Notes: generated by a model not told the origin, from the letters alone. A DNA stretch of 64,000 nucleotides from Minisyncoccota bacterium (GCA_041665885.1 JBAYHY010000002.1:19129-83128); one strand, 5' to 3'. Positions 20,665 to 45,976 are shown, counted from the stretch's first letter. Numbers and translations are program-made.

Positions 20665-21147
20665 ATGAAAAAAGACGAAATTCAAAATTTAATAAAAGAG
20701 CTAATTGAAAAGACTACGGTAAAGTTAAACACGATTTCCATTCTTGAGGAAGGGCCTAGAAGCATCTGGATTTCTGCGGAAGTTAGCGAACCACATTTTT
20801 TTATTTCGCGCGAGGGAGAAGGGTTGCAGGCGTTAAACCATCTCGTACATAGAATAGTCGAAGCCAAAACCCCGAGAGAGAAAAATGGAAGCCTAGAGCA
20901 AGGGCTGGGAATCCTCGTGGATATCAATGGTTTTCAAAAAAAACGAGTGGAGAACGTCCGCGCGATTGCACACATGATGTCCGAAAGGGCTCGATATTTC
21001 AAATCAAACATAGAAATAGATCCAATGTCGGCGTTCGAACGAAGAATCATTCATGAATTTTTGTCTGACGCGAACGATCTAAAAACAGAGTCCACGGGGA
21101 TGGGACGAGACCGCCGGGTAGTAATCAAATACACCGGATCTATTTAA
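20665..21147 (+). CDS. jag: Jag/KhpB-like RNA-binding protein (R3H domain)
   Basis: C-terminal R3H motif ..ERRIIHEFLSD..GMGRDRRVVIKY. Canonical position after yidC. Confidence 0.6.
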   Translation: MKKDEIQNLIKELIEKTTVKLNTISILEEGPRSIWISAEVSEPHFFISREGEGLQALNHLVHRIVEAKTPREKNGSLEQGLGILVDINGFQKKRVENVRAIAHMMSERARYFKSNIEIDPMSAFERRIIHEFLSDANDLKTESTGMGRDRRVVIKYTGSI

Positions 21148-22678
21148 TTTTAAGTTCCCAGAGGAAAGAATCTTTTTTGTTTACAAAAAATAAGTAATTT
21201 TCTGTTTCGTCTGTTCCAAGTTTTATGCCATCAATTTCCTCTCCCCCGGTCGTTGTGGTGGGGTCTATTATTTGAGTTGCATTTCCCGTTACAATATCGA
21301 TTTTCCAAAGTTGGTCGGAAAAAGAAACTTCTCCCTGGTACCAGACATCAGGGTATGTGCTTCCACCAGCACCCCCGGGGACCGCACAATAAAGGGTCGT
21401 GCTAGTTTTGTTCCAGACACATTTTTCTGGAAGGGTTTTTACCCCAAACGGCTCGACTGTTTTTGTGTCTGTGTGGAAAAGATTCAAGGCAAGAGTATTA
21501 TTTCCATAAAGTATCATTTTGCCGTCAGGACTCATGAGGGTGGTGAGTCCATTTATTTTACCCATAACTTGACTAAACCTTTGGCTGTTTAGGTCTTTTG
21601 TGTACATATAGCCTGGAACCGAGAAAGATGGCTTGGTGGTGAGGGTGATAGTTTTGCTATTTGGCCAGGAGGAAAGCCATTCGGTAAATGGAGAATCGAA
21701 GATTTGTGTTTTTTTATTGGTTAATAGGTTTAAGGTGGTGCCGACTATATTGTCTCCGCTATTGAATAAGTAAAACACGCTCTTTGTATCAGGGGCTAGG
21801 CTTAAATCTTTTACATCCTCCGGTAAAAAGGTTCCCTTTATTTCATTTCCGTCCGTTGTGTCCCCTGCCAACAATTCTTTTGGCAAATTTCCAACGAAGG
21901 ACTCTATCGTTTTTCCGTCTGTTTTTAGATATCTCATAATCACGGATTCTCCCTTATTCCCGAAGATTGCCTCATAGACTTTTGGTATTATTGTTGTGGT
22001 GAATTTTGTTTCCTGTATTTTATCTACAAATGTTTCATAAATGTTTCCTGAAGCTCTATCTACATATCTTAGGGCCGGGACAAGCTCGGTCGGTGGTGGG
22101 GTCGGATTAATTACTTGCCCAACCGAGGAATACATCGCTGTTTTTGTTTTTGTTCCAACCACCCCATCTGAAGCTAGGCCGTGATCTTTTTGCCATGATT
22201 TAACTGCGGTAGTTAAATTGCTGTCGAAGATTCCATTAATTTCTATACTCAGGCCGAGGGTAGCGTTCAAAAATTTTTGAAGTTCGCTTATCGCATCCCC
22301 CGTGTTTCCCTCTCTGAGAGTAGTGTTACCAAAATTATAATTTACAGAAGGAGTTTCTGTGGGGATTGGCATGTCTATTAGTCGTTCTTTGTTGAATACT
22401 ACATATCCCGCCACCGGCATGCTTGAGACCTTTTTTAATTGGTTGTTTTCTGTCGTTTCATTTGTCGGCTCTGGTTGATATCCTGATATGTCAGTCGGGG
22501 GGGTGCCGGTCGCTGGGGTGGCTGGTTTACTTGGGCCAAATGGGCTAAAAAGAGAGCCGAAATTTATTCCTCCCTGGGGCGTGTCCGTTGTTGGTTGGCG
22601 AAAATATAAAGTTCCCAGAACTATGAGAGTTATTGTGATTAAAATTATTATTAAAAGTATTAAATTTCTTTTTGACAT
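21140..22678 (-). CDS. secreted or membrane-anchored protein with a peptidoglycan-binding domain (PG_binding_1) and a beta-rich C-terminal region
   Basis: N-terminal TM segment. GDAISELQKFLNATLGLSIEINGIFDSNLTTAVKSWQKDHGLASDGVVGTKT matches the PG-binding domain. Confidence 0.5.
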   Translation of the reverse strand: MSKRNLILLIIILITITLIVLGTLYFRQPTTDTPQGGINFGSLFSPFGPSKPATPATGTPPTDISGYQPEPTNETTENNQLKKVSSMPVAGYVVFNKERLIDMPIPTETPSVNYNFGNTTLREGNTGDAISELQKFLNATLGLSIEINGIFDSNLTTAVKSWQKDHGLASDGVVGTKTKTAMYSSVGQVINPTPPPTELVPALRYVDRASGNIYETFVDKIQETKFTTTIIPKVYEAIFGNKGESVIMRYLKTDGKTIESFVGNLPKELLAGDTTDGNEIKGTFLPEDVKDLSLAPDTKSVFYLFNSGDNIVGTTLNLLTNKKTQIFDSPFTEWLSSWPNSKTITLTTKPSFSVPGYMYTKDLNSQRFSQVMGKINGLTTLMSPDGKMILYGNNTLALNLFHTDTKTVEPFGVKTLPEKCVWNKTSTTLYCAVPGGAGGSTYPDVWYQGEVSFSDQLWKIDIVTGNATQIIDPTTTTGGEEIDGIKLGTDETENYLFFVNKKDSFLWELKIK

Positions 22679-22694
22679 AAAATTTTGACTTTAT

Positions 22695-23729
22695 TTATTG
22701 ACATCCTTCGCTGGCAATCTGGGCGTTTATGCTAGCCATTCTATCTACAACCTGTTGCGCATAATCAATTCCCCCGAAACTACACTTACCAAAATATTTG
22801 CAAGCAGCTTGATAGGGGCTCGAAGAGTCACTTATATATGTAGCCGCCACGGTCATTGCGTCTCCGGTGTTCCATGGATTTTTTCCAGTACCGCCGCTTG
22901 CGAGCCATGTACTAGGAAGAATTTGCATACCCCCCATCGCACCCCCGTGACCGCCAGTTCCAGCGCATGATACGTTAACCGGAGGACTTTTTCCTAATCC
23001 GGCCAAGATTGTTTGAAGGTTTGCAACATCTGCCGGGTACATATTTGCAGTTTTCCCTTGTGCATTAGGAGATCCATCAGAAGAACATCCTCCAACATTT
23101 ACCCCCCCACTTGATTCTTGGGCAAAGATGGACAAAATAAGTGCCCTATCTACTCCAGTTGCTGCTTGTGCGGCAGTTGCCGCCGGACAAGCATCGGCCT
23201 TGAAATTAATTTTAGCCCCAGTCTTTCCATCAAGGCTTTGTGCCCCAGAAAGCACAAAATCATTTATTATTGTTACATTTTTTAAACTGGATAAGTCGGT
23301 TTTTAATAAATCAGGGTTGATTGTATTGAGAATCAACCAAGCACCGAGGGCCAGAAGAAGACCGAAAATTGCATGTGTGATTCTTTCTTTTCCATGTCCC
23401 TTGTTTCCCGGTAATTCACTTGCCATGTATTCAATTCCGCCCACCACTATCATTATTACAGCCAGGACAGCGCATATGCCGATAAATAAACTTATCATGA
23501 TATTTAAATATTTTCCCAAATTGCTTGCTTGCGTCGGGTCAAAGGTTTTAAGTTCACCGTTAACGCACCCCTCGGTGCCCGGGGTACATGGCAGTGGAGC
23601 CAAAAGTTGATACTCAGTATTAGTTGTTGGTGGAAGGGGCGGTCCTATGAGGGCAGTGACCTGAGTCGCGGGGCCCAAAAACCCGCCTAGCACGAAGAGT
23701 ATTAAAATATAAGGTAAAAGTTTTTTCAT
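22695..23729 (-). CDS. lytic transglycosylase (SLT domain) protein, VirB1/CwlT-like, with signal peptide and a central TM segment
   Basis: SLT motifs ..AQESSGG.. and GGMQILPSTW. The N-terminal MKKLLPYILILF signal resembles that of the 28452..31412 protein. Confidence 0.55.
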   Translation of the reverse strand: MKKLLPYILILFVLGGFLGPATQVTALIGPPLPPTTNTEYQLLAPLPCTPGTEGCVNGELKTFDPTQASNLGKYLNIMISLFIGICAVLAVIMIVVGGIEYMASELPGNKGHGKERITHAIFGLLLALGAWLILNTINPDLLKTDLSSLKNVTIINDFVLSGAQSLDGKTGAKINFKADACPAATAAQAATGVDRALILSIFAQESSGGVNVGGCSSDGSPNAQGKTANMYPADVANLQTILAGLGKSPPVNVSCAGTGGHGGAMGGMQILPSTWLASGGTGKNPWNTGDAMTVAATYISDSSSPYQAACKYFGKCSFGGIDYAQQVVDRMASINAQIASEGCQ

Positions 23730-23730
23730 T

Positions 23731-24729
23731 TTAAAATTCTACGCTAAGTTCTTTGCTGGCTGTTTCAAAAATTTTATAAATATTATTGATTTCTAATTTT
23801 ATTTTTGATGTTCCGGAAACCCCAGATTGTACTTTTACTGGCATTAAATTTTTATCAAGACTGTTTGTGTCTATCGGACTGCCGTTGATGGACCAATCCC
23901 ACGCAAGAATTGGATTTTTTATGTTTTGTGAAGAGATAAAATATGGGACCGCTTCTATAATTTCGTCGCTTATTATTTTATGTCCATCCAAAAGTGCTTT
24001 TTCCCAAAGGGTGCCCCTGGTTAAGTCGTGTTTATAAAAGACAAGTTTGGGAGCAAAAGTTATTATATCCACTGCTGCCCCCGTTTCGTATTTTTGGTCA
24101 ACGGTTGAGGCTTTCACACTGATATTATTTGAATCGTCTAAATAATCACTCGTGTAAACAAAAAAGTTTTTGCCATATCCAGAACTATCTGGGTTGTTTG
24201 TATAATCTTTTTTCCAGGAGTATGTCATCGTTTTGGGGTTTATGAGTTGAGAGCCGGAGTTTATTTCCGGCATAAAAACCACCTTGATTCCGCTGCCCGG
24301 ACCCGGCAATGCTTTTCCTTTATAAAAAGGGGGAACATAAGAGGCATTTGCCTGCCAAAGAAGGGTTGCAATGCTTGGCTTTACTATTATTATTTTTTCT
24401 ACTGTATTGTTGGGCAAGGCGACAGTGGCCACGACTCGCGCCTCTCCTCCACTGGTCGGAGCACTTAAGGATAAGGATTTTTTCCCTATTCCGGACAGAA
24501 CATTCTTTCCATTGACAGACCAAGAAATTAAAATGCTATCTAGTTTTGCTGAATAGCTACTTAAAGTAATGCTTGTATTTTCTCCCGGATTTGGGTTTTG
24601 TGGAACAACGCTCACATGGATACTTTCCGCAGACGGCGAAACTGCGTTCGTTATAAGGGGAAACGCAAACAAGAGGCCCCCGGCCATAAATAAAAATATA
24701 GATAATAATTTTAAAAGACCCTTCAACAT
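23731..24729 (-). CDS. secreted or membrane-anchored hypothetical protein in the T4SS-like operon (possible VirB8-like position)
   Basis: N-terminal TM/signal sequence, then a ~300-aa beta-rich domain. No motif recognised. Confidence 0.35.
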   Translation of the reverse strand: MLKGLLKLLSIFLFMAGGLLFAFPLITNAVSPSAESIHVSVVPQNPNPGENTSITLSSYSAKLDSILISWSVNGKNVLSGIGKKSLSLSAPTSGGEARVVATVALPNNTVEKIIIVKPSIATLLWQANASYVPPFYKGKALPGPGSGIKVVFMPEINSGSQLINPKTMTYSWKKDYTNNPDSSGYGKNFFVYTSDYLDDSNNISVKASTVDQKYETGAAVDIITFAPKLVFYKHDLTRGTLWEKALLDGHKIISDEIIEAVPYFISSQNIKNPILAWDWSINGSPIDTNSLDKNLMPVKVQSGVSGTSKIKLEINNIYKIFETASKELSVEF

Positions 24730-24782
24730 AACTTAATTATATCATTTTCTAATATTTAACACCTAATTTACGCATTTGCTGG

Positions 24783-26627
24783 CTATCTTCCAGTTATTTC
24801 TTCCGCCTCCTGTTCTTCTTTGGCTTTTTTGTTTGATAATATTTGAGAAGGATCAGAAGTGATTATTTGGTCTTCGGTGTAGGAGGAAACTATTTTTATC
24901 GCGACGTGCTTTAGCCCCGCAAAAAAGATTCCCTCCCCCAGGCCGGACTCCAAGAGTAAATATTTTTCTTCATCGGTTAAATTAAAGGTTTTTTGCAATA
25001 TGTCGATAGTTGTCGGGGATTGTTTTAAAAGAAGTTGAATGGAGGAGTTGGTGATTATCGGCACTCCGTATGGAGACTTCATAAAATCAGCTGCATCCTG
25101 AGTAATAGTAGAAAGGCCCAGATAATATTTTCTGCCCCTTTTGGCGATGGAATAAAGGAAAGAAGCCGTATCTTCGGATTTCATCATCCACCAGGCTTCA
25201 TCTACCACCAGCAGACGTTTTTTCAAGTTTTTTCGTATGGTGTTCCAAATATAATGCATCACGATATACATAGCGACGGGTTTTAATTCGTCTTCCATAT
25301 CTCGAACGGAGAACACCACGAATTTTTTGTTGATATCCACATTGGACGGCCTGTTTAAGAAAGTTGCCCACGAACCTTTCGTGTATTTTACCAGTCTGGC
25401 CACCACAGAGTTGCTACCTTCCATGCCTGAAAGCACCATTTCAAAATCTGTAAGAAGAGGAGGCTCAATGTTTGAAAAATCTGATTCAGGGGTAATATCT
25501 TTTATTGCATAGGTTTCTGAAATAGCTCGGTCTACCATTGAATCTTCTTCAGGGGTAAGACCACCCAACATCAAACGAAAAAGTCCAACAAGGTTGATGA
25601 TATTTGAACGCAAAACATCTTCTGCTGTTTCATCCTCGCGGGGAATTGGTAAGTCGAATGGGTTGATATGGTGGTCGGAGGAAAGCGAAATATTAAAATA
25701 TCGCCCACCAACAGCCTCGGACAAAAATTCATATTCTCTTTCCGGGTCTATCACGATAACGTCAGTGTCAAACATCAACGACCTTAGAATTTCTAGCTTG
25801 GTTGCATAAGATTTTCCGGAGCCGGATTTGGCGAAAGTCACAGAATTATAATTCTCTAAACTGAATCGGTCGAAGATAACGAGGGACGAGTTATGCCTGT
25901 TTATTCCATAGAGAATTCCTTTGTCAGAAGTTAGGTCGGAGGAAATAAAAGGGAAAACACTAGAAAGCGGCTCCGAGTTTAATTTTTGATGAATATTTAA
26001 CAAGTCAGTTTCAATCGGAATAACACTTTTGAATCCTTCTTCTTGTTGGAAGAGGGCCGGTTTGATATAAATAAGCTTTGATTCAAGCATTGATTTTATT
26101 TCATTTTCTATTTTAAAGAGTTCCATCTCGTTGTCGGCATAAATCGTAATATAGACGCCCACGTCGAACATTTTTTCCTGGGCCTGGATTAGATTATTGC
26201 GCAAGGTTTCTAAGTCTTCATACGCGGTGTCGAGCATTGGGTCACGGACCATTCCCCTTGCCGCCCTTACGTTTATTTGGCTTTGCACCTCGGCAGTTTT
26301 TTTCTGAAATTGTCTTAAAACCAAGGAGGTGTCTATCGGATGAATAAAAATAGAAATGTCGAAAACCTTATCTAAATTAATGATTGGCGAGAACCAATTG
26401 TCGGTCAAATATCTCGGATAAGAGATTATAAAAAAAGTACGAGCGATTTTATTTCCGAGATTTATTGATTTTGACTCTATTTTTAGGGCGGACGGGGCGA
26501 TGACGTCTTGGAGCTCCAGATTGGCAGATTCGTAAATTTCTTCCGGCAAAACTGCCAAAACAGAAGCCTGCGGTTCTATCTTTATACCTATTTTTTTATT
26601 ACCGAATAATTTTTTTAAAAAATCCAT
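24783..26627 (-). CDS. VirB4/TrbE/CagE-family type IV secretion ATPase (central + C-terminal ATPase part)
   Basis: Walker A FAKSGSGKSYATK, Walker B LLVVDEAWWMM (the hhhhDEAW form typical of VirB4), C-terminal ..GLSTITQ... Confidence 0.65.
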   Translation of the reverse strand: MDFLKKLFGNKKIGIKIEPQASVLAVLPEEIYESANLELQDVIAPSALKIESKSINLGNKIARTFFIISYPRYLTDNWFSPIINLDKVFDISIFIHPIDTSLVLRQFQKKTAEVQSQINVRAARGMVRDPMLDTAYEDLETLRNNLIQAQEKMFDVGVYITIYADNEMELFKIENEIKSMLESKLIYIKPALFQQEEGFKSVIPIETDLLNIHQKLNSEPLSSVFPFISSDLTSDKGILYGINRHNSSLVIFDRFSLENYNSVTFAKSGSGKSYATKLEILRSLMFDTDVIVIDPEREYEFLSEAVGGRYFNISLSSDHHINPFDLPIPREDETAEDVLRSNIINLVGLFRLMLGGLTPEEDSMVDRAISETYAIKDITPESDFSNIEPPLLTDFEMVLSGMEGSNSVVARLVKYTKGSWATFLNRPSNVDINKKFVVFSVRDMEDELKPVAMYIVMHYIWNTIRKNLKKRLLVVDEAWWMMKSEDTASFLYSIAKRGRKYYLGLSTITQDAADFMKSPYGVPIITNSSIQLLLKQSPTTIDILQKTFNLTDEEKYLLLESGLGEGIFFAGLKHVAIKIVSSYTEDQIITSDPSQILSNKKAKEEQEAEEITGR

Positions 26628-26655
26628 ATAATTTTTGTGATATTAAGCCCGTAGT

Positions 26656-27294
26656 TTATTCCAATTTGATTTTTCCTTCCAGTTCTCCCGGATTGAAAAC
26701 TTTATAAAATATTTCCACCACTTCCTCGGTGCCTAGTTGGGCTGAATTTATGCCACAACGTCCAAGTCCTTGTTGAATAACAGCCACTCTTTCTTCGAGC
26801 TGGGATCTTTTTTCTTCAAAAGCGACTTGTCTTGCCGCTCGGACCTCTTCCTTATTTTTTTTTGAGAATATTTTATTCAATATTCCGGTGTCTGATTTTA
26901 ACACAGTATGTGTGTAAGGCACGACCACAAAAAAGCTTTTTGTCATGATGCTAACCGAATCGGTAAAATTTTTAATGAATTCTATATATTCTCTGGTTTG
27001 TAGTTTTAAAAGCGGTTCATTTTGTACTTTCATGCGATTTTCCAAAAGAAGCAGATACGGGCGAATATCTAAGCGCCTAGACTGAATCGATATTTGTACG
27101 GAAAAATCCAGAGTATTAAGAAAATTTTGAAATTGCATTATGGTCGCCCTTTGCTCGTCGGATGATTTTAAAGAAAGATTGATTGAGTTGGCGAGAACAA
27201 TAGCCCGGAGATCGTCGTTTTTCAACACGACGATTCCGTCGCGTACTTCTTTAATCGGGATAAATTCTTGGGTTGCTTTTGCTTTTAAGGCCAT
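26656..27294 (-). CDS. VirB4 N-terminal domain-like protein (separate ORF)
   Basis: ..EFIPIKEVRDGIVVLKNDDLRAIVLANSINLSLKSSDEQRATIMQFQNFLNTLDFSVQISIQSRR matches the VirB4/TrbE N-terminal domain pattern. A 28-nt gap with stop codons in intervening frames argues for a genuine split. Confidence 0.45.
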   Translation of the reverse strand: MALKAKATQEFIPIKEVRDGIVVLKNDDLRAIVLANSINLSLKSSDEQRATIMQFQNFLNTLDFSVQISIQSRRLDIRPYLLLLENRMKVQNEPLLKLQTREYIEFIKNFTDSVSIMTKSFFVVVPYTHTVLKSDTGILNKIFSKKNKEEVRAARQVAFEEKRSQLEERVAVIQQGLGRCGINSAQLGTEEVVEIFYKVFNPGELEGKIKLE

Positions 27295-27299
27295 AATAT

Positions 27300-27728
27300 T
27301 TATTGGGTATCCTCTTTTTGTTTGCTTAAATCTAATACGTTTAAACTCCAGGCCAGGTCTCTCAACTTGCTTCCACTTAATTTTGTTGGGACCATTATTG
27401 TTTTATTTTCATCTAAAACTTGTGCTTGATCGGGCTTATTTTTTTGGTTTTTTTGTTTTTTCCAAATATAAAGTTTGTTTTGGGTAAAATATTTGAATCC
27501 GTATTCAAGCATGTTCACAAAGGGTTTATTATTTGGTCGATAAAAAGTAAGCAACAAGGAAAATCCCGCCATAACCAAAATCGGGATTGCTCCCCAGAAA
27601 AGGCCCAACAATTTATAAAGAGTAAAACATAAACCTCCGCCACCGACTAAGTAAATAAACTCCCTAAAAGTAAAAGGGCCAAAAATTTTATCTTCTATCT
27701 CTAAAAATTGTGGAACTCGGAATTGCAT
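27300..27728 (-). CDS. PrgI/VirB3-like small membrane protein
   Basis: MQFRVPQFLEIEDKIFGPFTFREFIYLVGGGGL followed by two TM helices. Closely matches the PrgI-family (VirB3-like) N-terminal consensus of Gram-positive-type T4SS. Confidence 0.5.
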   Translation of the reverse strand: MQFRVPQFLEIEDKIFGPFTFREFIYLVGGGGLCFTLYKLLGLFWGAIPILVMAGFSLLLTFYRPNNKPFVNMLEYGFKYFTQNKLYIWKKQKNQKNKPDQAQVLDENKTIMVPTKLSGSKLRDLAWSLNVLDLSKQKEDTQ

Positions 27729-27734
27729 AATTTT

Positions 27735-28427
27735 TTATTCAGGTTTTATTCTGTATGGGTCCTCCCCTATCGAATAAGAGGGAGAAAGTTTGCTTGTGTC
27801 CGTGGATGCGGGTTTTATATTTCCCATAATGCTTGAAGGGGAAAGGGGGACCGGGGGTGTCGTGGGAGAATTCACCCCAGGACCAGAACCCTTTGTGATA
27901 TTTTCTAAAGTATGTTCTGTCCTCGCCACCCCACTTTGAACGGAGGAAGATAATTTTTGAGCCAAGATGGTGTGCACATCTTCTTTAAGTTTTTTTTCAC
28001 CAATATCGTTTGTCGGAGTATTCTTCGTTGGAAGAACTTCAATGCCAGCCGAGTTTAATATCTCTGTATTTTTTTCTTCTTCTGCTTGTATGTTTTTAGT
28101 TTCGGGCGCAGGATTATACATCGCCATTATTTTTACCCTAATTTCTTTTAATATTTTTTCATTAACAGCGTTGACCACAGCTTGAGTCTTTTCGTCACCC
28201 AGCTTCATGCTGTTTTTAACGGATTCTTTAAACTTATCCGGGTGAGTAAAACCAAACATTACCATGTGTGTTTCTAGGGAAAGTTGCCCCATTTGTTCCA
28301 CGTTTAGCCCCTCTGTTTGACCTATCTCAATAATATTATCATCTACCTTGGCTGCCATAATCGCCCATTTCAAATCTTCCGGCAAAGTTTCAAATTTTTT
28401 TTGTATTTCTTCTAATGTTATTTCCAT
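27735..28427 (-). CDS. hypothetical soluble protein with a Pro-rich C-terminus, in the T4SS-like operon
   Basis: 230 aa, no TM segment, no recognisable motif. Confidence 0.35.
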   Translation of the reverse strand: MEITLEEIQKKFETLPEDLKWAIMAAKVDDNIIEIGQTEGLNVEQMGQLSLETHMVMFGFTHPDKFKESVKNSMKLGDEKTQAVVNAVNEKILKEIRVKIMAMYNPAPETKNIQAEEEKNTEILNSAGIEVLPTKNTPTNDIGEKKLKEDVHTILAQKLSSSVQSGVARTEHTLENITKGSGPGVNSPTTPPVPLSPSSIMGNIKPASTDTSKLSPSYSIGEDPYRIKPE

Positions 28428-28451
28428 AATATTTTTTTAGGTTAATAATTT

Positions 28452-31412
28452 TTAAGGATTAACAGGTCCTCCGTATTTACCGCTTGGTGGGCTACTTACC
28501 GTTGGGTGTGTTGCTGGCGCGCCCTGAGGTTTTTCTTCCGTTTTTGGTGAACGCGCCCCCGCCCCCGACGCGCGCTCCCTCTTTTCTTTTTCTGTTTTTG
28601 GTTTTCCATCCGTGGCTGCTTTCTCTCTCTTTTCTTCAAGAGATGATTTGTCTTTATTAAGTCTATGATTTTCTATTCTCAGTTGCTTTTCTTTCGCCAC
28701 TGCTGCCCTTAATTCGTTTAACTTAAATATTTCAAAATTATTTTTTCCAATGGTAACTTCAACAGCCCTCATTTTGTTTTTTGTTTCTTCATCATATTCA
28801 CCATTCTCGTCAATCCTACCCTGTTGCTCAATACGTCGAAGTCTAAGTTCTTCTCTCCTTGCGATGTTTTGTAGCTCAATTAGTTCTTTTTCAAGGCCGT
28901 CCGTTGTGGCAAAACCATTTTCTTTACTGCCGCTTATTTTTCCATTCTTGACCGCTGTTTCTAATAAGTCATGGAGCCCTTCTAGGGTCTTTTTGTTTTG
29001 TTCCATGATGTCTGTTATTCTGCTCATTTGAGCGAATTCTTTGTCAGTCTTTTTAGAAAAGATAGCTTCACCGGCTTTTTCACTCCCGACAGGGGTTGCT
29101 TTGTATACACCTGCCGCCCCGCCCCCCATTGCTCCTGCGCCTGCACCCATAGCACCTGCCGCCACACCACCGGTCATCAAACCGGCAACAGCCGCTGCCG
29201 TACCACCAACAACCAGCTTAGTGTTCTGAACCCTCCCATCGTTGATGCTTTTGGCTGTTGGTTCCGGATGTTCTGCTTTATATATTTCATCAAATCTCGG
29301 TTTTTTAAAGTAGTCACCCTCTTTTTTCATGGCCTGTTTTTCGGCCTCATCTCTTTCTTTCTTCCAAGCCAGATATTCTTTTGAATTTTGATAGTGTTTT
29401 TTGTTGAGCAATGGATCTCCCTTATCGTCTACCAATTTATCTCGTTTTTTTACAATTTCAAAAGCCACGGCCCCTGTTAGCCCCGTTTTTCCAAAATTAC
29501 TTATGAATTCGTTCATTCGGTGGTTGTTTAAGCCCTCCGCCGTTTTATACCAATCTGGTCTTGGGCCATTTTTTCTTACATAGTCTTCCTCAAAAGCTTT
29601 TGCTTTTGCTGGATCGATATCGAGTGATTTGCCACCTACTGCATTTTTTGCTTCTTCCTTTTTCACGTCGTATTTGTCTTGTTCTCGTTTTGACCAAGCT
29701 TCTGTTTGCGTATCTGTCATTTTTGTTTTATATAGTTTTGATTCTTCTTCAAGAACTTTTGCATGTCTTTCTCCTGCTCCCCTGAATCCGCCCTCCTTGG
29801 GACCTAAGCCCAATATTTTGGCAGATGATAAGTCTAATCCGGCTCTCTTGGTTAGAGACCCCACACCCGGAGCTTTTCCTAGATCAAACGAAGCCTTGGA
29901 GCCAAGGTCTGTTGTCTTTAGTTTCATTCTTGCCACAAGCCCTCCGAAGCCACCCTTGTTGGCTTGTTCCCTCCAGACCTCCCCCTTGCTTGCTAATTGT
30001 TCAGCCGCTGTTGCTCCAATCGTCTTGGTGGCCAGAAGAGCAGCTCCGCCCGTCGCAGCACCCAAGGCAACTCCACCTACCATTTTTGCTCCAGTCATTA
30101 ATACTTCCCCCAATTTTCCTGAACCCTTTTTGGCAAACTCGGTCGCCTTTAAAAGAAGAGTTAGAACAATAGCAGCAGGGATAACAAGCAGTAAGATCGT
30201 TGCTATCATGCTTGTGTTTGTAGGCGAAACAAAACCGTCGAATATCTTTTTTCCAATTAACATAAATATAAAATACAAAAAGAACATAAAAATCGGCGCC
30301 ATAAAGGCCGTCTTAAGTAAGCGTTTAAACCAGGGTTCCCATCCCAAGTATTCAATATTTGCTAGTTTCGGAACAGTTGACGACATAAAAGCAAAAGGAG
30401 AAAAAATAATCAGGATAAACAATTCAATCATTCGAACCAAAAAAGCCACACCTGCCCACAGGAGGCAATAAGCAGCAAAGAGCATGACTGTTCCAGCAAG
30501 AATAGTAACCCCGATTAATATTCCGGGAGGTACCTGTTTGCTTTTAGTCGGCGGGAGGCCTGGCACTTGTTGCACCTTGGCCTTTTCAAAGAACTCTTGG
30601 GTTAATAGTCTGGTGGGGTCAAAGGATTGAACCATCCCCCCTGCTATGTCTTTGTCCCCGATTACATCGTCGTATGGTCTTGGTGTGCCGTTTGGGTTGC
30701 GTGCCTGAACATCTATTTTATTATAAAAAATCAATGCCAACATATTTGATGAATCAATAATCACTTCTGTAAAAAACATAGAAAAATTTATAAGCAAAGC
30801 GACAACAACAACCCTCGCTATCATTTTTTTTGCTTCTGCCCCCCCGATGTCCAGAATTATTTTGATAGCAATGTAAAGAAGAATAAGGATAAAGAAAATA
30901 TTAGAAAGATCTCGCACCACTGCCCAGGCTTCAGGGATAAAAGTAGAGCCAGCAAACAGCTTGCTATACAGGGTGATTTTTATTAAAACATTAAAAAAAT
31001 AAGCGGAGAACCACAACAAAAAGGTGGGAATTGCATAAAAAATAGCGTACGAGGCTTGGATAAAACATCCGGGCCAAAAGGTACCACTGGAAAAGGGGTT
31101 CGTGGAACATTTATTCTTGCTTATTTCTTTTTCAAAATCTGATCTTGACTCAGTGGTCGACTGATAAATTTGACTTCCATTCTGGGCAGCACAATCTGCT
31201 GTGGTGGTTTGTATCTCCGTACCGTCCGGCAATTCGCAAGTTATAAATGGTTGCCAGACCCCGCCTGCTTGAGTACAGGCATCAGGGGTTACAAATGGAG
31301 GGATAGTACAAACCCCGGGTGCTTCCGTCTGCGCGTAAATTTTTGTTGTCGGGCTAAAAAGTCCGATCAAAACAAAAACAATTATTAAAATATAAGGTAA
31401 AAATTTTTTCAT
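28452..31412 (-). CDS. large polytopic membrane protein, VirB6/TrbL-like, with a Cys-containing extracellular N-domain and a long C-terminal coiled-coil, Gly/Ala-rich tail
   Basis: Signal peptide MKKFLPYILIIVFVL. More than eight TM helices in the 100-470 region. C-terminal 500 aa are hydrophilic with KE-rich coiled coil and GA-rich stretches. Confidence 0.45.
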   Translation of the reverse strand: MKKFLPYILIIVFVLIGLFSPTTKIYAQTEAPGVCTIPPFVTPDACTQAGGVWQPFITCELPDGTEIQTTTADCAAQNGSQIYQSTTESRSDFEKEISKNKCSTNPFSSGTFWPGCFIQASYAIFYAIPTFLLWFSAYFFNVLIKITLYSKLFAGSTFIPEAWAVVRDLSNIFFILILLYIAIKIILDIGGAEAKKMIARVVVVALLINFSMFFTEVIIDSSNMLALIFYNKIDVQARNPNGTPRPYDDVIGDKDIAGGMVQSFDPTRLLTQEFFEKAKVQQVPGLPPTKSKQVPPGILIGVTILAGTVMLFAAYCLLWAGVAFLVRMIELFILIIFSPFAFMSSTVPKLANIEYLGWEPWFKRLLKTAFMAPIFMFFLYFIFMLIGKKIFDGFVSPTNTSMIATILLLVIPAAIVLTLLLKATEFAKKGSGKLGEVLMTGAKMVGGVALGAATGGAALLATKTIGATAAEQLASKGEVWREQANKGGFGGLVARMKLKTTDLGSKASFDLGKAPGVGSLTKRAGLDLSSAKILGLGPKEGGFRGAGERHAKVLEEESKLYKTKMTDTQTEAWSKREQDKYDVKKEEAKNAVGGKSLDIDPAKAKAFEEDYVRKNGPRPDWYKTAEGLNNHRMNEFISNFGKTGLTGAVAFEIVKKRDKLVDDKGDPLLNKKHYQNSKEYLAWKKERDEAEKQAMKKEGDYFKKPRFDEIYKAEHPEPTAKSINDGRVQNTKLVVGGTAAAVAGLMTGGVAAGAMGAGAGAMGGGAAGVYKATPVGSEKAGEAIFSKKTDKEFAQMSRITDIMEQNKKTLEGLHDLLETAVKNGKISGSKENGFATTDGLEKELIELQNIARREELRLRRIEQQGRIDENGEYDEETKNKMRAVEVTIGKNNFEIFKLNELRAAVAKEKQLRIENHRLNKDKSSLEEKREKAATDGKPKTEKEKRERASGAGARSPKTEEKPQGAPATHPTVSSPPSGKYGGPVNP

Positions 31413-31434
31413 TTTATAAAAAACTCACTAATCA

Positions 31435-33252
31435 TTATTCATTCTCGATCCACACTCCCTCCTGTGCCGTACAATCGGATTCCGAAATATCTTGCAGTAT
31501 TTCTCCGCTGCTTAAGGTACAGGTACCTAGAATTGTCGGGGCCTCTATCGTGATATTGAGGGTAATTGTTTCCCCCATAGAGTCTGTTATCGTGGCTGAT
31601 GTTTGTCCTAAATTAATACCGCTAACAACTAAGGTAGGGTCAGTAAAGTCTGAGATTGCGATAGTTGCGCTCGGGCTTGCCGACATGTGATAGGGAGGGG
31701 TGCCACCAGATACTGTGGCGATAGCTGTGCCACCAATTCCAGTGGTGATGCTTGCTGGAATAATCATCAAATCTCCATTTTCAACAACCGTAATATTTAT
31801 TTTAACTTTTTTTGCGTTTGGAGAAGAATCTTTGACTGTGACTGAAGTCCCTCCGTGGGAAATTCCCGTAATAGAAAGATCATATCCACCGCTGTCGTTA
31901 TTGAGAATTGAAGCAGTCGCTATCGCTGGGTTGGGAGTAATTGGGTCCGTAACTTTTATGCTATAAGGAGGTGTTCCTCCGGAAATTGTCGTGCTAGTCG
32001 GGTTTGTTCCCCCCATGGTAATGGAAACATTTTGTGGAATATCGAGTGCCCCTGCCCCTCCTCCACCAGTGCCACTGGTTCCATCGAGGGATTGTCCGTC
32101 ATAGGTCCAGTTGTCTACCGGTTCTTCTGTCCCGCTAATCGTGTCTGACAAGGAATTTAGCCCATCGCTCAAAAACTTATTTAATAAAGCATTTATTATG
32201 GTTGCTATGCTGGCTTGGATAGACCCCAAAACCGCGCCCTGTATGGTCTCATCTTTTCCGGCACTCAACGAACCCATTATTTGATCTGCCACCACAGAAC
32301 CCGGGGTGGTGTTTACTAAATTTTTACAAGTATTTTTTGATGCCCAGTCTGCTTGAGCGCTGTCCATTGCTAGTTGGTAACCACTGTGGCAAGCATCGCA
32401 TGCCATTGCATTATATCCTGGGTCCTCTGAGTTTCGTGGTCCCACCAAGGGACAACCTGGGACACCACAAATCCACTCAACGGTTGATCTGTCAAAGGTC
32501 GGGCGATTCCATGCGTTAGCCATAACGTCATTGTATTCGGTGCCTTCATCCATACATTTCTCTGGAGAAAGGAAACCCATTCCCTGATCAAGAAGAGTAT
32601 TTACTTTTTCTGCTGGAGCTTTGAATGTTCCCTGAACCAGGCTGGCGAGTTCTTCGTTTGCCAGCATTTGAAAGCCCAGATAATTGTTTTGCGGATATTG
32701 AGTATTAATGAGAAAACCATTCCATCCACCGACATTAAAATCATCTCTAAAACTAGCCGCTTGTTGTTGGCCCATGACGGAGCTCAGGGTATATGCCACG
32801 TTGCTTTCAAGTTTACTTTTATAGGCACTGATTGTGTTTAGGGCCCAGGCTCGGCCGAAAGGAAATCTGTTTAAATCATAGCCGAACTGGTCAATCATTG
32901 TTTTAATCTCAGATTTTGCAATATCCTTAAAGAAGGAATCAGGATTTTCTAGAAAAAGTGGCGAACCGTGAAACCCGGAATTAATCCAGCCGACGACGTC
33001 TTGGGTCATCTGGTCTAAAATACGCTGAATGATTGCCATCAGGACATATTCGGCAACCCTTTTTACTTGTTGCCAGACATTTGCTGCTGCATTTGGTGTC
33101 GCTATCGCGTCTGAAAAAAGCGCGACCGTCGGGACCATTATACTGGCGTCGAGCGCCGCTTTTGCATTTTTGGGATATAGAAACACAGACCCCGGAAGAA
33201 GAAAAGAAATGATTAACAGAACAGAGATTAATTTTTTATTTTTAGTCAGCAT
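31435..33252 (-). CDS. secreted protein with two tandem ~80-aa Ig-like repeats (GGTPPY..), possible surface or pilus-associated adhesin
   Basis: Signal peptide. C-terminal tandem repeats ..ISGGTPPYSIKVTDP.. / ..VSGGTPPYHMSASPS... Confidence 0.4.
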   Translation of the reverse strand: MLTKNKKLISVLLIISFLLPGSVFLYPKNAKAALDASIMVPTVALFSDAIATPNAAANVWQQVKRVAEYVLMAIIQRILDQMTQDVVGWINSGFHGSPLFLENPDSFFKDIAKSEIKTMIDQFGYDLNRFPFGRAWALNTISAYKSKLESNVAYTLSSVMGQQQAASFRDDFNVGGWNGFLINTQYPQNNYLGFQMLANEELASLVQGTFKAPAEKVNTLLDQGMGFLSPEKCMDEGTEYNDVMANAWNRPTFDRSTVEWICGVPGCPLVGPRNSEDPGYNAMACDACHSGYQLAMDSAQADWASKNTCKNLVNTTPGSVVADQIMGSLSAGKDETIQGAVLGSIQASIATIINALLNKFLSDGLNSLSDTISGTEEPVDNWTYDGQSLDGTSGTGGGGAGALDIPQNVSITMGGTNPTSTTISGGTPPYSIKVTDPITPNPAIATASILNNDSGGYDLSITGISHGGTSVTVKDSSPNAKKVKINITVVENGDLMIIPASITTGIGGTAIATVSGGTPPYHMSASPSATIAISDFTDPTLVVSGINLGQTSATITDSMGETITLNITIEAPTILGTCTLSSGEILQDISESDCTAQEGVWIENE

Positions 33253-33309
33253 TTTTTATTTTGTGCCAGTCTGTTTCATTATAATATATAGTTTATTTGA
33301 TGTGAAGGA

Positions 33310-34200
33310 TTATTTTTTTGCTATTTTTTGATTTACAGTGTTTGTTAAATTTTGTACGGTTTGTACGTAGAGCTCTAGGTTTTTTTCATATTGATTCATC
33401 CCGCCCAGGGCCACAAGGGGGTCACCTTCGTATAATTGTAGGTCGCTTAAATTTTCGACTATTCTTTCTATCCCGTTTAAATAGTCTAAGTGTTGATAGG
33501 CGAAAGCACGAGGAACGCTCATCTCGGTCATAGCTTCGATTACTTTATTCGCGCTTGCAATAATCGGGTCCAGGTCTCTTAAGGCTGTAATGTCAATGTT
33601 TTTTTGATCATTTACAAATCTTTCCAATACTTCTGTCACGGTGTAATCCTGTTTGTTGTTTTGTTTCCAAATGCTCATAACATTGGTGCTGTAATTTGTA
33701 TAAGTTTCAAGGCTAGTATTTTCTGTTATTTTTAGATCAGAAAGAACGAAAACTCTCTTTTGGGGAGTGTTTTGTATTTTATCGGCGAGGGAAACGCCGA
33801 TTTGTTCTGTTAGTGTTTGGTCGAAGGTTCCACTTTGGCCGACGGAGGCAGCCGTTGAAAAAAGTTCTCTCGCGAATTTTTCTGTTTCGGTTAGATTTTC
33901 TGTATCTTGATTTTCATTTATTGAAATTAGTCCTTGTTCGGTTCTTAATTTGTTTATTGTCGTGGAATCAGGAACCCCGGGAACGGTTTCTCTTTTGGTC
34001 GGATCTAGCCCGTACAATTTTTCTTGCCAATCTGGAATAGTGTCTCCATCAGTATCCATTTCCACCAATTGTTTGATTGTCGTGTCGTCATAGGCTAAAC
34101 CATTTTGTGTTTTTTGGATTAGAGCCACGGTCTTTTCGAATAGAGTTGTCTTCTTTGCTAAAAAAAGCACGACAAGAAATAGCACCGCAAAGGTGATCAA
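33310..34200 (-). CDS. membrane-anchored hypothetical protein (first gene of the T4SS-like operon) with a DTDGD Ca-binding-like motif
   Basis: N-terminal TM, then EMDTDGDTIPDWQE. Confidence 0.35.
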   Translation of the reverse strand: MITFAVLFLVVLFLAKKTTLFEKTVALIQKTQNGLAYDDTTIKQLVEMDTDGDTIPDWQEKLYGLDPTKRETVPGVPDSTTINKLRTEQGLISINENQDTENLTETEKFARELFSTAASVGQSGTFDQTLTEQIGVSLADKIQNTPQKRVFVLSDLKITENTSLETYTNYSTNVMSIWKQNNKQDYTVTEVLERFVNDQKNIDITALRDLDPIIASANKVIEAMTEMSVPRAFAYQHLDYLNGIERIVENLSDLQLYEGDPLVALGGMNQYEKNLELYVQTVQNLTNTVNQKIAKK

Positions 34201-34321: not shown

Positions 34322-35407
34322 ATGAATAAATCTTATTTATTTTTATTTATTTTTTTTATTTTTCCCTTTTTTGCGCAAGGAATTTTTGCCACAGTCGCCT
34401 TTTCAGCTGTTCCAGAAGCAGCTAATTGCCCCATTCTTTCTACCTTGAGAGTGGGCTCCGTCGGAGAGCAGGTAAAATGTCTTCAAAAAATCGTTGGAAC
34501 AAGCCCGGACGGTTATTTTGGTCCATTGACCAAGGTGGCCGTTCTTTCGTGGCAATTAAGCCACAATTTAGTGGCAGACGGGGTGGTTGGTCCTCTAACT
34601 CGAACAATTCTAGTGAGCTTTACTGTTGCTAGTGACTTTCCGGAAGGGTGTACTCAAACCACGACATATAGCCCAACGACCGGAAAAAAGTGCAATGGCA
34701 GTGAAACAGCAGAAAATAGCGCTGGTCTTTCCCCTGCCTCTGTTTCATCAACAAATCCTGTCGTTATCCCGGGTACAAAAGTGGCTGTCGGTAGTAAGAT
34801 GCCGGAATCCTTAAAAGATCCCCAGCAAAACCTAGAAAATTACATTGCCTCAGTAAAAAGCGATCTTGTTAAAAGAGGCGAAACGCTGAGTACAATATTG
34901 CTTATTGAAGAAAGTATAAGAAACAGTGTTGCAGAAAACCCTAATGCAACCCAACAATTTTTTGATGCTCAAAGAGAAATTTATAATAAGACGGCTTCAG
35001 GGAAAATTTCTAAATTGTCCGCATTAGTTTTTTTTGATAAAGTTTTTTCTTTTTTCAGTAAAACTTTTTCTACAAACAAAGCTCAGGCGGCATCACAATT
35101 ACCGTTCGGGGGATTCGTTGGTGTATTCCCCGATTGTACTTGCACAGGTGAACCACCGGCGGTGGTCCAACTTTTTGTTACATTGCCAAGTGCCCCCACA
35201 GGAATTTCTAATATAAAGTTGAATTATGCGACGGGGACCCAGGCATTTTTGAATTTTAATTTACCGCTGGAGGGAGTTGCGGTGCTTGGTTTTTATAATC
35301 CTGCAGCCAATGTGGCATGTACAGTAACCATAGGGACGGGATGCGGCATAATACCCGCGGAAGGTCAGATTATTCCCACAGTGGGGTCTTCTCTTTCTCC
35401 GTCATAA
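34322..35407 (+). CDS. secreted protein with an N-terminal peptidoglycan-binding domain
   Basis: Signal peptide. ..GSVGEQVKCLQKIVGTSPDGYFGPLTKVAVLSWQLSHNLVADGVVGPLT matches PG_binding_1. Confidence 0.5.
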   Translation: MNKSYLFLFIFFIFPFFAQGIFATVAFSAVPEAANCPILSTLRVGSVGEQVKCLQKIVGTSPDGYFGPLTKVAVLSWQLSHNLVADGVVGPLTRTILVSFTVASDFPEGCTQTTTYSPTTGKKCNGSETAENSAGLSPASVSSTNPVVIPGTKVAVGSKMPESLKDPQQNLENYIASVKSDLVKRGETLSTILLIEESIRNSVAENPNATQQFFDAQREIYNKTASGKISKLSALVFFDKVFSFFSKTFSTNKAQAASQLPFGGFVGVFPDCTCTGEPPAVVQLFVTLPSAPTGISNIKLNYATGTQAFLNFNLPLEGVAVLGFYNPAANVACTVTIGTGCGIIPAEGQIIPTVGSSLSPS

Positions 35408-44109: not shown

Positions 44110-45849
44110 CTAATAAACCTCCTGCTGGTAGCAACTCTCGCAATAGACTATTTCTGCTCGGTCGGGGGAGTAAGATGTTTCAAATTCATTTTTGCATTTT
44201 TTGTCACCATGGGTGTGGTTTTTCAACTCGCACATACAAGAGCGGCGCCACAGTGTTAGGGGATTTTTTTGTTTTAGCCTGTTGTAGTGTCGGCAATTTG
44301 GACACAATCTAGGTAATGGCAGGTCCATGCGTTTGTAAAACTGAAGCTCGTCGGGAGTTATTTTGAAAGCCTCGGTGCACACAGCCTCACAGTTTGCTTC
44401 TTCGTGATTATTTTTGTCGTGATGGGCGCAACCTATTACTTTTTCTAATATTTCCTCGCTAACGTTATCAGACAAATCTTCCGCTTTTATGTCGATTTTA
44501 TAATTTCTGGTTTCTTTTTCTTTCCATGGATACCCATTTTTAAGTGCCTCATCGTGGGTCAATGGAAAATTTTCTTGTACAGCTGTTTCGTTGTAGCAAA
44601 AAGGGGAGAATTCTGATGGGAAGAAATCACCATATACAAAGCTCTTACCATTTTTATCTTTATACGGCATGTCTTTCATGTGTTGTTTTATTTTTGGTAT
44701 TAATTCTTCATATTTCTCTTTAGTATATTGCTTATTTAAAATACAATATTTTTTCTTTTTTAGGCCTACACAACCAAACAAGTTGTCGACATTTTCGCAG
44801 GTATCACAATAAAAGGTATCAAAACAATGCCAGGCACAATAGCAACTGTGCGCGTTATTCAAGCTAATTGCGCTAACTATCTCGTGAGAAAGTTCACAAT
44901 TATCTACAACGACGTAACCATCCATGCAATCTTTCGCCTTATTACCATAATTTACATAATTACAATTTTCCAATAGATCAGAATTAAAAATATTATGAGA
45001 ATTTTTTGAACCAAAGATATAATCTCCTGAAATATCTATATTTTGCAGGCCGTGAACATACTTGACTGGGAAATTAAGCCAAAATTTCTTAGCCTTTTCC
45101 CTTGTTTCCATCATGTTTTTATACAAAGAAAACCCAATTTTTTCTTTTTCTTTCAAATACTCTTCTTTTGAGTATTGTTTGTTAAAAATACAATATTGTT
45201 GATTGCGTAAATTTACCGAAGCGATGCAGTCATGGCAATTTGAGCAATTTTTACAAAAATATAAATCCTGGGAATTTGAACAATCTTCTGAGAAGAGAAC
45301 ACGATAAGATTTTTTGCAGGTTATAGAATCATATAAAAATTCACATTCAGTAGAATTTAGAGAATCCATTGTATTTTTACAATTAAAAATATTGTGAGAA
45401 TACAGTGAGTCCTCGTTATGGTCGCTTACAAATATTAAATAACAATTTTTATTATAAGCAGCACCATTTACATAGTCGCTATTGTGGTTTTGAAAAACAA
45501 AAGCGTATAAACGGGGCACTTTTAGTTGAAGTTCACGAAATTGTTGTAAAAAAGGTTTTGAAAAATCTAAATCTAAACCATAGTCCGTTGCGTTCCAACC
45601 ATCTCCGTGGAAGCACTCATTGCAATAAACCTTGTATGGTTTGTCCTCGGAATATATAGTAATAATGTTTTTTTGGCACAGGTCGCATGTTCTTTTATAG
45701 AGACTTCTCTCGTTTCTCCAGTTCATTTTATTTTGCATTCTGCAGGTTGGACAGTAATTGGGCGTTTCAGTTTCTATTTTGGAATAAAAACCCAGCTCAT
45801 CTTTGGTGATTTCGAAATCCTTTTTACAGTTTTGGCAAATTTTTTGCAT
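44110..45849 (-). CDS. large Cys-rich protein with duplicated N- and C-terminal zinc-ribbon modules (MJ0042-like CxxC...F.IT.DEL.FY...CPxCR) and a repetitive Cys-containing middle region
   Basis: N-terminus ICQNCKKDFEITKDELGFY..YCPTCR. C-terminus CTEAFKITPDELQFYKRMDLPLPRLCPNCR. About 20 C..C / NC..C repeats between. Confidence 0.4.
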   Translation of the reverse strand: MQKICQNCKKDFEITKDELGFYSKIETETPNYCPTCRMQNKMNWRNERSLYKRTCDLCQKNIITIYSEDKPYKVYCNECFHGDGWNATDYGLDLDFSKPFLQQFRELQLKVPRLYAFVFQNHNSDYVNGAAYNKNCYLIFVSDHNEDSLYSHNIFNCKNTMDSLNSTECEFLYDSITCKKSYRVLFSEDCSNSQDLYFCKNCSNCHDCIASVNLRNQQYCIFNKQYSKEEYLKEKEKIGFSLYKNMMETREKAKKFWLNFPVKYVHGLQNIDISGDYIFGSKNSHNIFNSDLLENCNYVNYGNKAKDCMDGYVVVDNCELSHEIVSAISLNNAHSCYCAWHCFDTFYCDTCENVDNLFGCVGLKKKKYCILNKQYTKEKYEELIPKIKQHMKDMPYKDKNGKSFVYGDFFPSEFSPFCYNETAVQENFPLTHDEALKNGYPWKEKETRNYKIDIKAEDLSDNVSEEILEKVIGCAHHDKNNHEEANCEAVCTEAFKITPDELQFYKRMDLPLPRLCPNCRHYNRLKQKNPLTLWRRSCMCELKNHTHGDKKCKNEFETSYSPDRAEIVYCESCYQQEVY

Positions 45850-45976
45850 ATAATTTTATAATTATAACAATAAGTATGATTTTTCGCTCTTTTGAGCTCA
45901 TCAGTTAGGACACACATCCTAAAAAATCGGTTCGTATCGTGAACCACACGGATAGTTTTCGATATCAGCGATTATA

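Follow-up and report, generated by a model that had tools for sequence, protein, structure and literature searches.

What does a type IV secretion system (T4SS) do when it lies beside the replication origin of a bacterial chromosome with neither a relaxase nor a coupling protein nearby? The question is raised by a ten-gene operon (21140-34200, minus strand) in 64,000 nucleotides of DNA from a Minisyncoccota bacterium (GCA_041665885.1 JBAYHY010000002.1:19129-83128). This whole stretch, here called the window, was analysed, and positions are counted from its first letter. A first-pass annotation had described the operon as a T4SS-like apparatus of the Gram-positive type and had proposed that it may serve DNA uptake or cell contact rather than conjugation in an epibiotic bacterium belonging to the Candidate Phyla Radiation (CPR). 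Our analysis indicates that the locus is, with a probability of about 0.8, a chromosomally fixed, vertically inherited and non-conjugative T4SS of the Patescibacteria clade, derived from the mating pair formation class FATA (MPF-FATA; CD1110/CTn2-type) and carried by a Nomurabacteria-like member of Candidatus Paceibacterota, and that its role is most likely contact-dependent exchange with a host cell. The CPR origin of the organism was borne out: it belongs to Paceibacterota, and the VirB4 ATPase of the window is identical to that on a record from a 'Candidatus Paceibacterota' metagenome-assembled genome.

All ten open reading frames (ORFs) were found, base for base and in one direction, where the first-pass annotation had placed them. 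The gaps between them, in ascending coordinates, are 16, 1, 53, 28, 5, 6, 24, 22 and 57 nt. The comparisons below use 80 related loci from species-level genomes of the Paceibacteria/Nomurabacteria type, which were fetched by VirB4 from 554 confirmed relatives.

The motor of the system is encoded at 24783-26627 (minus strand; 614 amino acids). The protein lacks the first ~180 residues of full-length VirB4 and matched the NCBIfam model NF045971 (VirB4-like conjugal transfer ATPase, CD1110 family) over positions 182-733 of 752 at 8.1e-110, with 368 bits against a cutoff of 325. The first-pass annotation had named a better match to HerA or FtsK as the result that would overturn its assignment. We found the opposite ranking, as the VirB4 model and the Pfam family P-loop_TraG (4.7e-25) both scored far better than DUF87/HerA (5.8e-6). 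When a profile of 38 orthologues was compared with the PDB, Thermoanaerobacter VirB4 (4AG5) was recovered at 1e-48 and TrwK of R388 at 1e-5, and only VirB4 chains, with no HerA or FtsK entries, were found at 1e-3 or better. The Walker A motif AKSGSGKS (266-273) and the Walker B motif LLVVDE (472-477) are composed of residues invariant among the orthologues; Walker B was also located by pattern search.

The missing N-terminal part of VirB4 is encoded as a polypeptide of its own immediately upstream (26656-27294, minus strand; 212 amino acids). This TrsD-like protein matched positions 1-163 of the same CD1110 model (5.3e-5), positions 101-252 of the VirB4 model from Mycoplasma integrative conjugative elements (ICEs) (1.2e-10) and positions 3-174 of the VirB4 model TIGR00929 (4.5e-4); its match to the NCBIfam TrsD/TraD model (2.4e-5) was below that model's cutoff. 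We also considered that TrsD might be a paralogue of the N-terminal region of the operon's own VirB4, and rejected this at an hhalign probability of 0.2%. Because the two proteins match different parts of one model and have no similarity to each other, they represent complementary pieces of a full-length VirB4, and their combined length (212 + 614 = 826 amino acids) compares with 797 amino acids for an unsplit Clostridium homologue. TrsD is a separate ORF in all 80 related loci. Judged from these predicted proteins, VirB4 is genuinely split into TrsD and ATPase polypeptides, as the first-pass annotation had proposed. TrsD was the most abundant component in a survey of Patescibacteria T4SSs (Quinonero-Coronel et al. 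2025, Microb Genom, PMC12102498).

Upstream of TrsD lies a PrgI/VirB3-like gene (27300-27728, minus strand; 142 amino acids) with a transmembrane helix at 40-58. The absence of any VirB3 or VirB6 match among the small membrane proteins had been the other half of the refuting result named by the first-pass annotation, and here the Pfam family PrgI was matched above its cutoff (1.7e-8, 35.3 bits against 27), together with a weaker match to TcpE. The gene stands directly upstream of TrsD-VirB4 in 76 of the 80 loci. The polytopic membrane protein encoded at 28452-31412 (minus strand; 986 amino acids) begins with a signal peptide and an exported N-terminal segment rich in Cys, continues as a bundle of membrane helices (~115-450) and ends in a K/E/A/G-rich tail of 536 residues. 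Its description as VirB6-like holds at the level of the fold only, and at that level we count the polytopic VirB6 component as present. Between 28000 and 30000 the strand composition is anomalous (GC skew -0.21, AT skew -0.36), which coincides with minus-strand coding of the K/E/A/G-rich tail. With VirB4 and PrgI both above their cutoffs, the assignment to a Gram-positive-type T4SS is supported.

The gene at 22695-23729 (minus strand; 344 amino acids) had been annotated as a VirB1-like SLT transglycosylase. This description is correct for the C-terminal domain and incomplete for the rest of the protein. After a signal peptide, the protein carries a VirB2-like pilin module (~70-140). Residues 80-137 exceed the cutoff of the Pfam family T4SS_pilin (2.8e-9; 37.4 bits, cutoff 26.6), and weaker matches were obtained to the NCBIfam Mbov_0395 pilin-like family of Mycoplasma ICEs (2.3e-7) and to TrbC (0.0044). 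Two hydrophobic helices (77-95 and 117-135) enclose a basic loop, PGNKGHGKERITH, so that both the VirB2/TrbC profile and the two-helix, basic-loop architecture are found in this protein. A linker leads to the C-terminal domain of the SLT_2 type, a predicted lytic transglycosylase that supplies the VirB1-type peptidoglycan hydrolase near VirB4. The SLT_2 match is weak in the window's protein (0.0019; MltB_2, 0.006), with the motifs ESSGG at 205 and MQ at 268, and it is above the cutoff in a protein of the same cluster from another related locus (L010; 35.8 bits against 24.3). The protein differs from a small mature VirB2 subunit (~70-120 amino acids) in its length of 344 residues, with an enzyme domain of ~200 residues after the pilin module.

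C-terminal extensions of at least 60 residues were found on 73 of 76 related pilin ORFs. The pilin module itself is kept in 63 of 71 orthologues at this position and represents the only pilin-type gene in the locus. What follows the module is exchanged. The fused C-terminal domains fall into 25 sequence clusters, including NlpC/P60 (14), VanY (8), YkuD (5), SLT_2 (3), M15_4 (3), SLT (3), a lysozyme-like group and several groups without an assigned family. At least seven enzyme families are attached to the pilin module (NlpC/P60, VanY, YkuD, M15_4, Amidase_5, SLT/SLT_2 and lysozyme-like), and their occurrence is patchy across species that share 85-94% identity in VirB4. When 1.84 billion representative proteins were searched exhaustively with the pilin module, 14,661 relatives were returned. 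Among the best 150 of these, 100 have C-terminal extensions of at least 100 residues, and about half of those 100 contain recognisable peptidoglycan-active domains. One further protein from this public collection (P0484, 1775 amino acids) is a 'poly-pilin' in which this T4SS-pilin module is repeated in tandem to give 17 copies.

In the predicted proteins, both the pilin-enzyme fusion and the swapping of its enzyme domain are evident. We found no mention of such a fusion in the Patescibacteria T4SS survey (PMC12102498) or in the other literature searched, and it is the one under-described feature of this system. An origin by the joining of adjacent genes as arranged in Clostridial T4SSs was not supported, since a hidden Markov model of the Patescibacteria pilin matched small proteins of the Clostridium botulinum plasmid pCDC3875 only at E values of 0.16 or higher. 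It is possible, though we put it forward tentatively and regard it as on the unlikely side, that the interchangeable peptidoglycan-active domains carried by the VirB2-like module are displayed on a T4SS stalk or pilus and act on the wall of the host as well as on that of the epibiont, as an 'enzymatic pilus'. Host targeting and polymerisation in this proposal are speculative. If it is true, the enzyme type would track the peptidoglycan chemistry of the host and contribute to host range, and a domain that acts on host walls could be used to predict the host range of uncultured CPR bacteria.

Downstream, the operon is flanked by jag (R3H), yidC and rnpA on the plus strand, followed by dnaA and dnaN. 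On the upstream side, its neighbours are a PG_binding_1 gene of divergent orientation, then ksgA and a gene for a helicase of the pcrA/uvrD type. Nearly all of the 80 loci retain the order pcrA-ksgA, ten genes, jag-yidC-rnpA, dnaA-dnaN, in agreement with the survey, which places Paceibacteria T4SSs near dnaA, dnaN, rnpA and ksgA (PMC12102498). The GC content of the operon (0.38-0.42) is like that of the rest of the window, with no compositional break. The first-pass annotation had noted that VirD4 and a relaxase are missing from the window, and this proved correct: neither a VirD4/TcpA coupling protein nor a relaxase was found in Pfam scans of the window or among the genes called 10 kb beyond each end (~84 kb). 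No element-type integrase was found near the operon, and the only recombinase is Xer-like (51362-52282, 17 kb off). The kept synteny, the GC content like that of the surroundings and the lack of a relaxase, coupling protein or element-type integrase nearby argue for chromosomal fixation of the operon.

Rates of divergence within the loci differ strongly. The median identity to the window was 84.8% for VirB4, 80.4% for DnaA, 70.8% for TrsD, 68.2% for DnaN, 61.6% for YidC, 54.9% for PrgI and 29-46% for the exported proteins. Proteins with 88-95% identity to the window's VirB4 make up more than 120 clusters, each built at 90% identity. VirB4 is more conserved than DnaA (17702-19042) in 52 of 52 comparable loci, the median difference in identity being +8.8 percentage points, a comparison that carries a mild selection bias since the loci were chosen by VirB4 similarity. 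From these sequences the operon appears to be a vertically inherited part of the core genome, whose motor is under strong constraint and whose exterior evolves fast. A constrained ATPase combined with fast exported parts is the signature expected of a host-interface machine.

As to the origin of the system, the survey describes a monophyletic Patescibacteria VirB4 clade nested in MPF-FATA (PMC12102498). The identity of the window's VirB4 to CD1110/CTn2-type proteins is only ~30%; the nearest non-CPR VirB4s are all from monoderm bacteria, at 35% or less, and the best plasmid matches are all from Bacillota or Actinomycetota. Because the best NCBIfam, structure and plasmid matches are monoderm and the core gene order is collinear with that of pCDC3875, we assign the system a monoderm (MPF-FATA) affinity.

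The remaining operon proteins are mostly exported and variable. The first gene (g33310; 33310-34200, minus strand) encodes a bitopic protein of 296 amino acids with an N-terminal transmembrane helix at 2-20. Just after this anchor, residues 49-67 form a thrombospondin-type-3-like (TSP3-like) Ca-binding motif, DTDGDTIPDWQEKLYGLDP, in which D49, D57, W58, E60 and L62 are invariant or nearly so in 32 orthologues. The exported domain is probably helical by prediction, and no Pfam, NCBIfam or PDB relative was found. By tblastn the gene was detected in 35 of the 80 loci, always at the same position. The next gene (g31435; 31435-33252, minus strand) encodes a secreted protein of 605 amino acids with a signal peptide, a conserved all-alpha N-terminal domain (~30-400) and two tandem beta-sandwich-type repeats of ~80 residues; its C-terminal part varies between species. 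We considered this protein as VirB5, the component of the stalk or pilus tip, and a VirB5/TraC-like helical fold was not supported. The protein encoded at 27735-28427 (g27735, minus strand; 230 amino acids) has a conserved N-terminal domain of ~100 residues, a low-complexity tail rich in P, S and T and a conserved C-terminal DPYR, in which D223, P224 and Y225 are invariant or nearly so. It has no transmembrane helix and no Pfam, NCBIfam or PDB relative, and the gene was detected in 45 of the 80 loci.

Two more proteins are encoded downstream of VirB4 on either side of the pilin fusion. The one immediately downstream of VirB4 (g23731; 23731-24729, minus strand) is a bitopic exported protein of 332 amino acids with a transmembrane or signal anchor at 8-26. 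It is present at this position in 75 of the 80 loci. No Pfam or NCBIfam match was obtained, PDB matches to immunoglobulin-type domains were non-significant, and internal repeats were not supported. The last gene (g21140; 21140-22678, minus strand) encodes 512 amino acids with a transmembrane anchor at 6-24, a P/T-rich linker, a PG_binding_1 domain at 126-182 (Pfam, 1.8e-13) and a TolB-like beta-propeller; a profile of its orthologues matched TolB (7mx5) at 5.4e-4 and four other TolB chains. It was found in 68 of the 80 loci. The first-pass annotation had counted two PG_binding_1 proteins in the operon. One of them is this protein; the other (34322-35407, plus strand; 361 amino acids; Pfam PG_binding_1 1.8e-8) lies just outside, between the operon and ksgA. 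This divergent gene was found in only 4 of the 80 related loci. It is a neighbour whose membership of the conserved system is doubtful, and it looks like a lineage-specific insertion.

A scan for promoters and terminators gave 37 promoter-like sites against 31.4 in shuffled sequences, which is near expectation. Terminator-like sites were commoner than in shuffles (32 against 17.2), yet no boundary of the operon could be placed from them. Among the sigma-70-like matches of the region, the best is TTCACA-17-TATAAT (11 of 12 positions; 33306-33278, minus strand), which falls in the 57-nt gap between g33310 and g31435, upstream of the latter. It suggests an internal promoter between these genes, although promoter-like sites are, in total, no commoner than the shuffles predict.

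The other genes of the window are of the housekeeping kind and encode UvrB, PolA, PilB, RuvB, YebC, RuvC, a class-I tRNA synthetase of the W/Y type, a class A penicillin-binding protein, an M23/LysM peptidase, the CCA-adding enzyme, PNPase and the Xer-like recombinase. The pilB gene is split in the window into a MshEN ORF (7230-7817) and a T2SSE ORF (7814-8926), both on the plus strand. In another assembly of the same organism (L083 2209-3906) a single pilB gene encodes 565 amino acids, and the two sequences differ only by 1 nt, which the window lacks in a run of A at ~7768 (AAAA to AAA). We considered PilB as a second split ATPase and rejected this on the basis of the 1-nt deletion, which is unlike the split of TrsD and VirB4; the pilB split probably reflects a frameshift or an error of assembly, or else variation between strains. 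At 44110-46723 (minus strand), a pair of neighbouring proteins (579 and 248 amino acids) had no Pfam match; they adjoin a weakly response-regulator-like gene (46720-47088).

How might these parts work together? In the mechanism that we propose, a VirB4 hexamer completed by TrsD would dock on PrgI and VirB6 to form a membrane translocon. The two-helix VirB2-like module would either anchor the peptidoglycan-cleaving domain at the machine or polymerise and display that domain, and so open the cell wall. The wall-bound protein with the PG_binding_1 domain and TolB-like propeller, together with the fast-evolving products of g23731, g31435 and g33310, would form the wall-spanning, host-contacting part. 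The outcome would most likely be contact-dependent exchange with the host cell that carries the epibiont, either as protein export or as import of host material. Since Wang et al. (2023, Cell, PMC10633639) found the homologous T4SS of Southlakia epibionticum and its pilins to be essential for growth as an epibiont, we infer a host-interaction function for the locus by analogy. A 2025 FEMS review likewise discusses a possible conduit role and reports that a comEC deletion is viable (PMC12857230). The choice of the first-pass annotation in favour of cell contact or uptake over conjugation agrees with the synteny in ~80 species and with this published view.

Several points weigh against host exchange by a non-conjugative system. 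The only experimental data come from the Saccharimonadia system, which belongs to a different class and differs in its genes, with an array of pilins and with hydrolases encoded separately. The VirB4-DnaA comparison is subject to the bias described above. Sequence profiles of g23731, g21140 and g33310 gave no match to VirB8, PrgL or TraM (VirB8 is rarely found in Patescibacteria, PMC12102498), and no role could be assigned to 4 of the 10 operon proteins. The genome could also encode a coupling protein elsewhere, and the system could hence transfer DNA, as most Patescibacteria have a VirD4 homologue far from virB4 (PMC12102498). This last observation, a tyrosine recombinase at 51362-52282 and the homology of every recognisable component to Gram-positive conjugation proteins would also be expected of a remnant or active ICE with its relaxase, coupling protein and integrase somewhere beyond the analysed DNA. 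However, ~80 species have the operon at one and the same chromosomal position with identical flanks, and because of this synteny the ICE explanation is largely refuted. The operon also has no compositional break, its VirB4 is better conserved than DnaA, the Xer-like recombinase lies 17 kb away among housekeeping genes, and relaxases occur in only ~3% of Patescibacteria genomes (PMC12102498). We regard an ICE as very improbable.

The missing relaxase and coupling protein (over ~84 kb) would also be explained by a competence-type T4SS, like ComB of Helicobacter pylori or archaeal Ced, which imports environmental or host DNA as a source of nucleotides or genes. Nucleotide synthesis is missing in Patescibacteria (PMC12857230), the T4SS adjoins comF, recG and radA in the class ABY1 (PMC12102498), and the surroundings of the operon in the window abound in genes of DNA repair and recombination (pcrA, ruvB, ruvC, polA and uvrB), with a comM-like gene ~8 kb beyond. 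That gene, which encodes a ComM-like Mg-chelatase/AAA protein (L081 7846-9393), and a gene for a LexA-like S24 peptidase, ~8 kb past the right end of the window, are the only competence-associated genes seen near the locus. Window scans found no com genes beside the operon, however, and the repair genes are ordinary origin-proximal housekeeping genes. Fast exported components and swapped wall-enzyme domains are not expected for the import of free DNA. In S. epibionticum, deletion of comEC abolishes competence and not viability, while the T4SS is essential (PMC12857230); therefore the essential role is not ComEC-dependent DNA uptake, and we consider DNA uptake unlikely here. The pilin data could also be read to mean that the system assembles a surface organelle only, in which VirB4, VirB6 and PrgI build a short pilus or stalk of the pilin-enzyme fusion for adhesion and wall penetration, without translocation of a substrate. 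The coupling protein, which is the substrate receptor, is missing; VirB4 is the pilus-assembly ATPase in characterised systems (PMC12102498); and pilins are essential in S. epibionticum (PMC10633639; PMC12857230). At the present locus, the VirB2-like module is kept by 63 of 71 orthologues, and no other gene is of the pilin type. But an enzyme domain of ~200 residues on every subunit would be unprecedented for VirB2 polymers, polymerisation is hypothetical, and Ptl and the Brucella VirB system secrete proteins though they have no coupling protein (PMC12102498). Assembly alone is quite unlikely in our view, and contact-dependent host exchange is the preferred explanation of the locus.

Among T4SSs, that of the Patescibacteria is so far the sole one known to be essential to the growth of its own carrier. 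Since the system has already been published (Wang et al. 2023; Quinonero-Coronel et al. 2025; the 2025 FEMS review), the interpretation of the first-pass annotation is supported and not new; that annotation had overlooked both this literature and the VirB2-like pilin domain fused to the transglycosylase. The locus is no new kind of system. It represents a clean, well-conserved Paceibacteria example, and three quantitative points sharpen the picture: the constraint on the ATPase beyond that on DnaA combined with fast exported parts, the split VirB4, and the pilin-enzyme fusion with a swappable domain.

Among known systems, ComB of H. pylori and archaeal Ced resemble the present system as VirB4-based machines without a relaxase. 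However, no sequence-level affinity to them was seen; the best matches here are conjugative VirB4s of monoderms, with no adjacent competence gene. The Trs and Tra systems of pGO1 and pIP501 share a separate small TrsD/TraD directly upstream of the VirB4 homologue (TrsE/TraE), but the plasmids that carry them are conjugative and encode the VirB8-like TraM/TraH in addition to a relaxase and a coupling protein, whereas no VirB8-like protein was found here. PrgK of pCF10 and TraG of pIP501 are, like the pilin fusion, membrane-anchored wall hydrolases encoded just downstream of VirB4 and presumed to open the wall (PMC12102498). They have a plain transmembrane anchor and stable domains (SLT and CHAP, with or without LytM), in contrast to the VirB2-type pilin anchor and the at least seven exchanged enzyme families found here. 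A related plasmid arrangement is that of C. botulinum pCDC3875 (NZ_KJ776578.1), a CD1110/CTn2-type MPF-FATA system with the collinear core VirB6 (CD1112)-PrgI-VirB4 (CD1110)-SLT hydrolase. Unlike the present locus, it has VirD4 (CD1115), a MOBP relaxase, an unsplit VirB4 of 797 amino acids and a VirB6 of 260 amino acids without a long tail, and its hydrolase (957 amino acids) is without a detectable Patescibacteria-type pilin module.

Within the Patescibacteria, the only member with functional data is the system of S. epibionticum ML1 (SEML1_0006-0019). It shares with our locus a chromosomal and origin-proximal position, the Gram-positive type, pilin-like genes and a cluster with no recognisable relaxase or coupling protein. 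In this saccharimonadial bacterium, six stand-alone divergent pilins are encoded, with separate peptidase and lysozyme genes downstream of virB4, whereas our locus has one pilin module, joined to the hydrolase in a single protein. The survey lists TrsD, PrgI, VirB6 and VirB2-like pilins as components, with VirB1 near virB4 in Paceibacteria and the relaxase absent (PMC12102498). Compared with this Paceibacteria arrangement, the present locus is an instance of it, with the same components, the same neighbourhood and nothing essential different. The survey treats VirB1 and VirB2 as separate components, whereas here they form one polypeptide with interchangeable enzyme domains.

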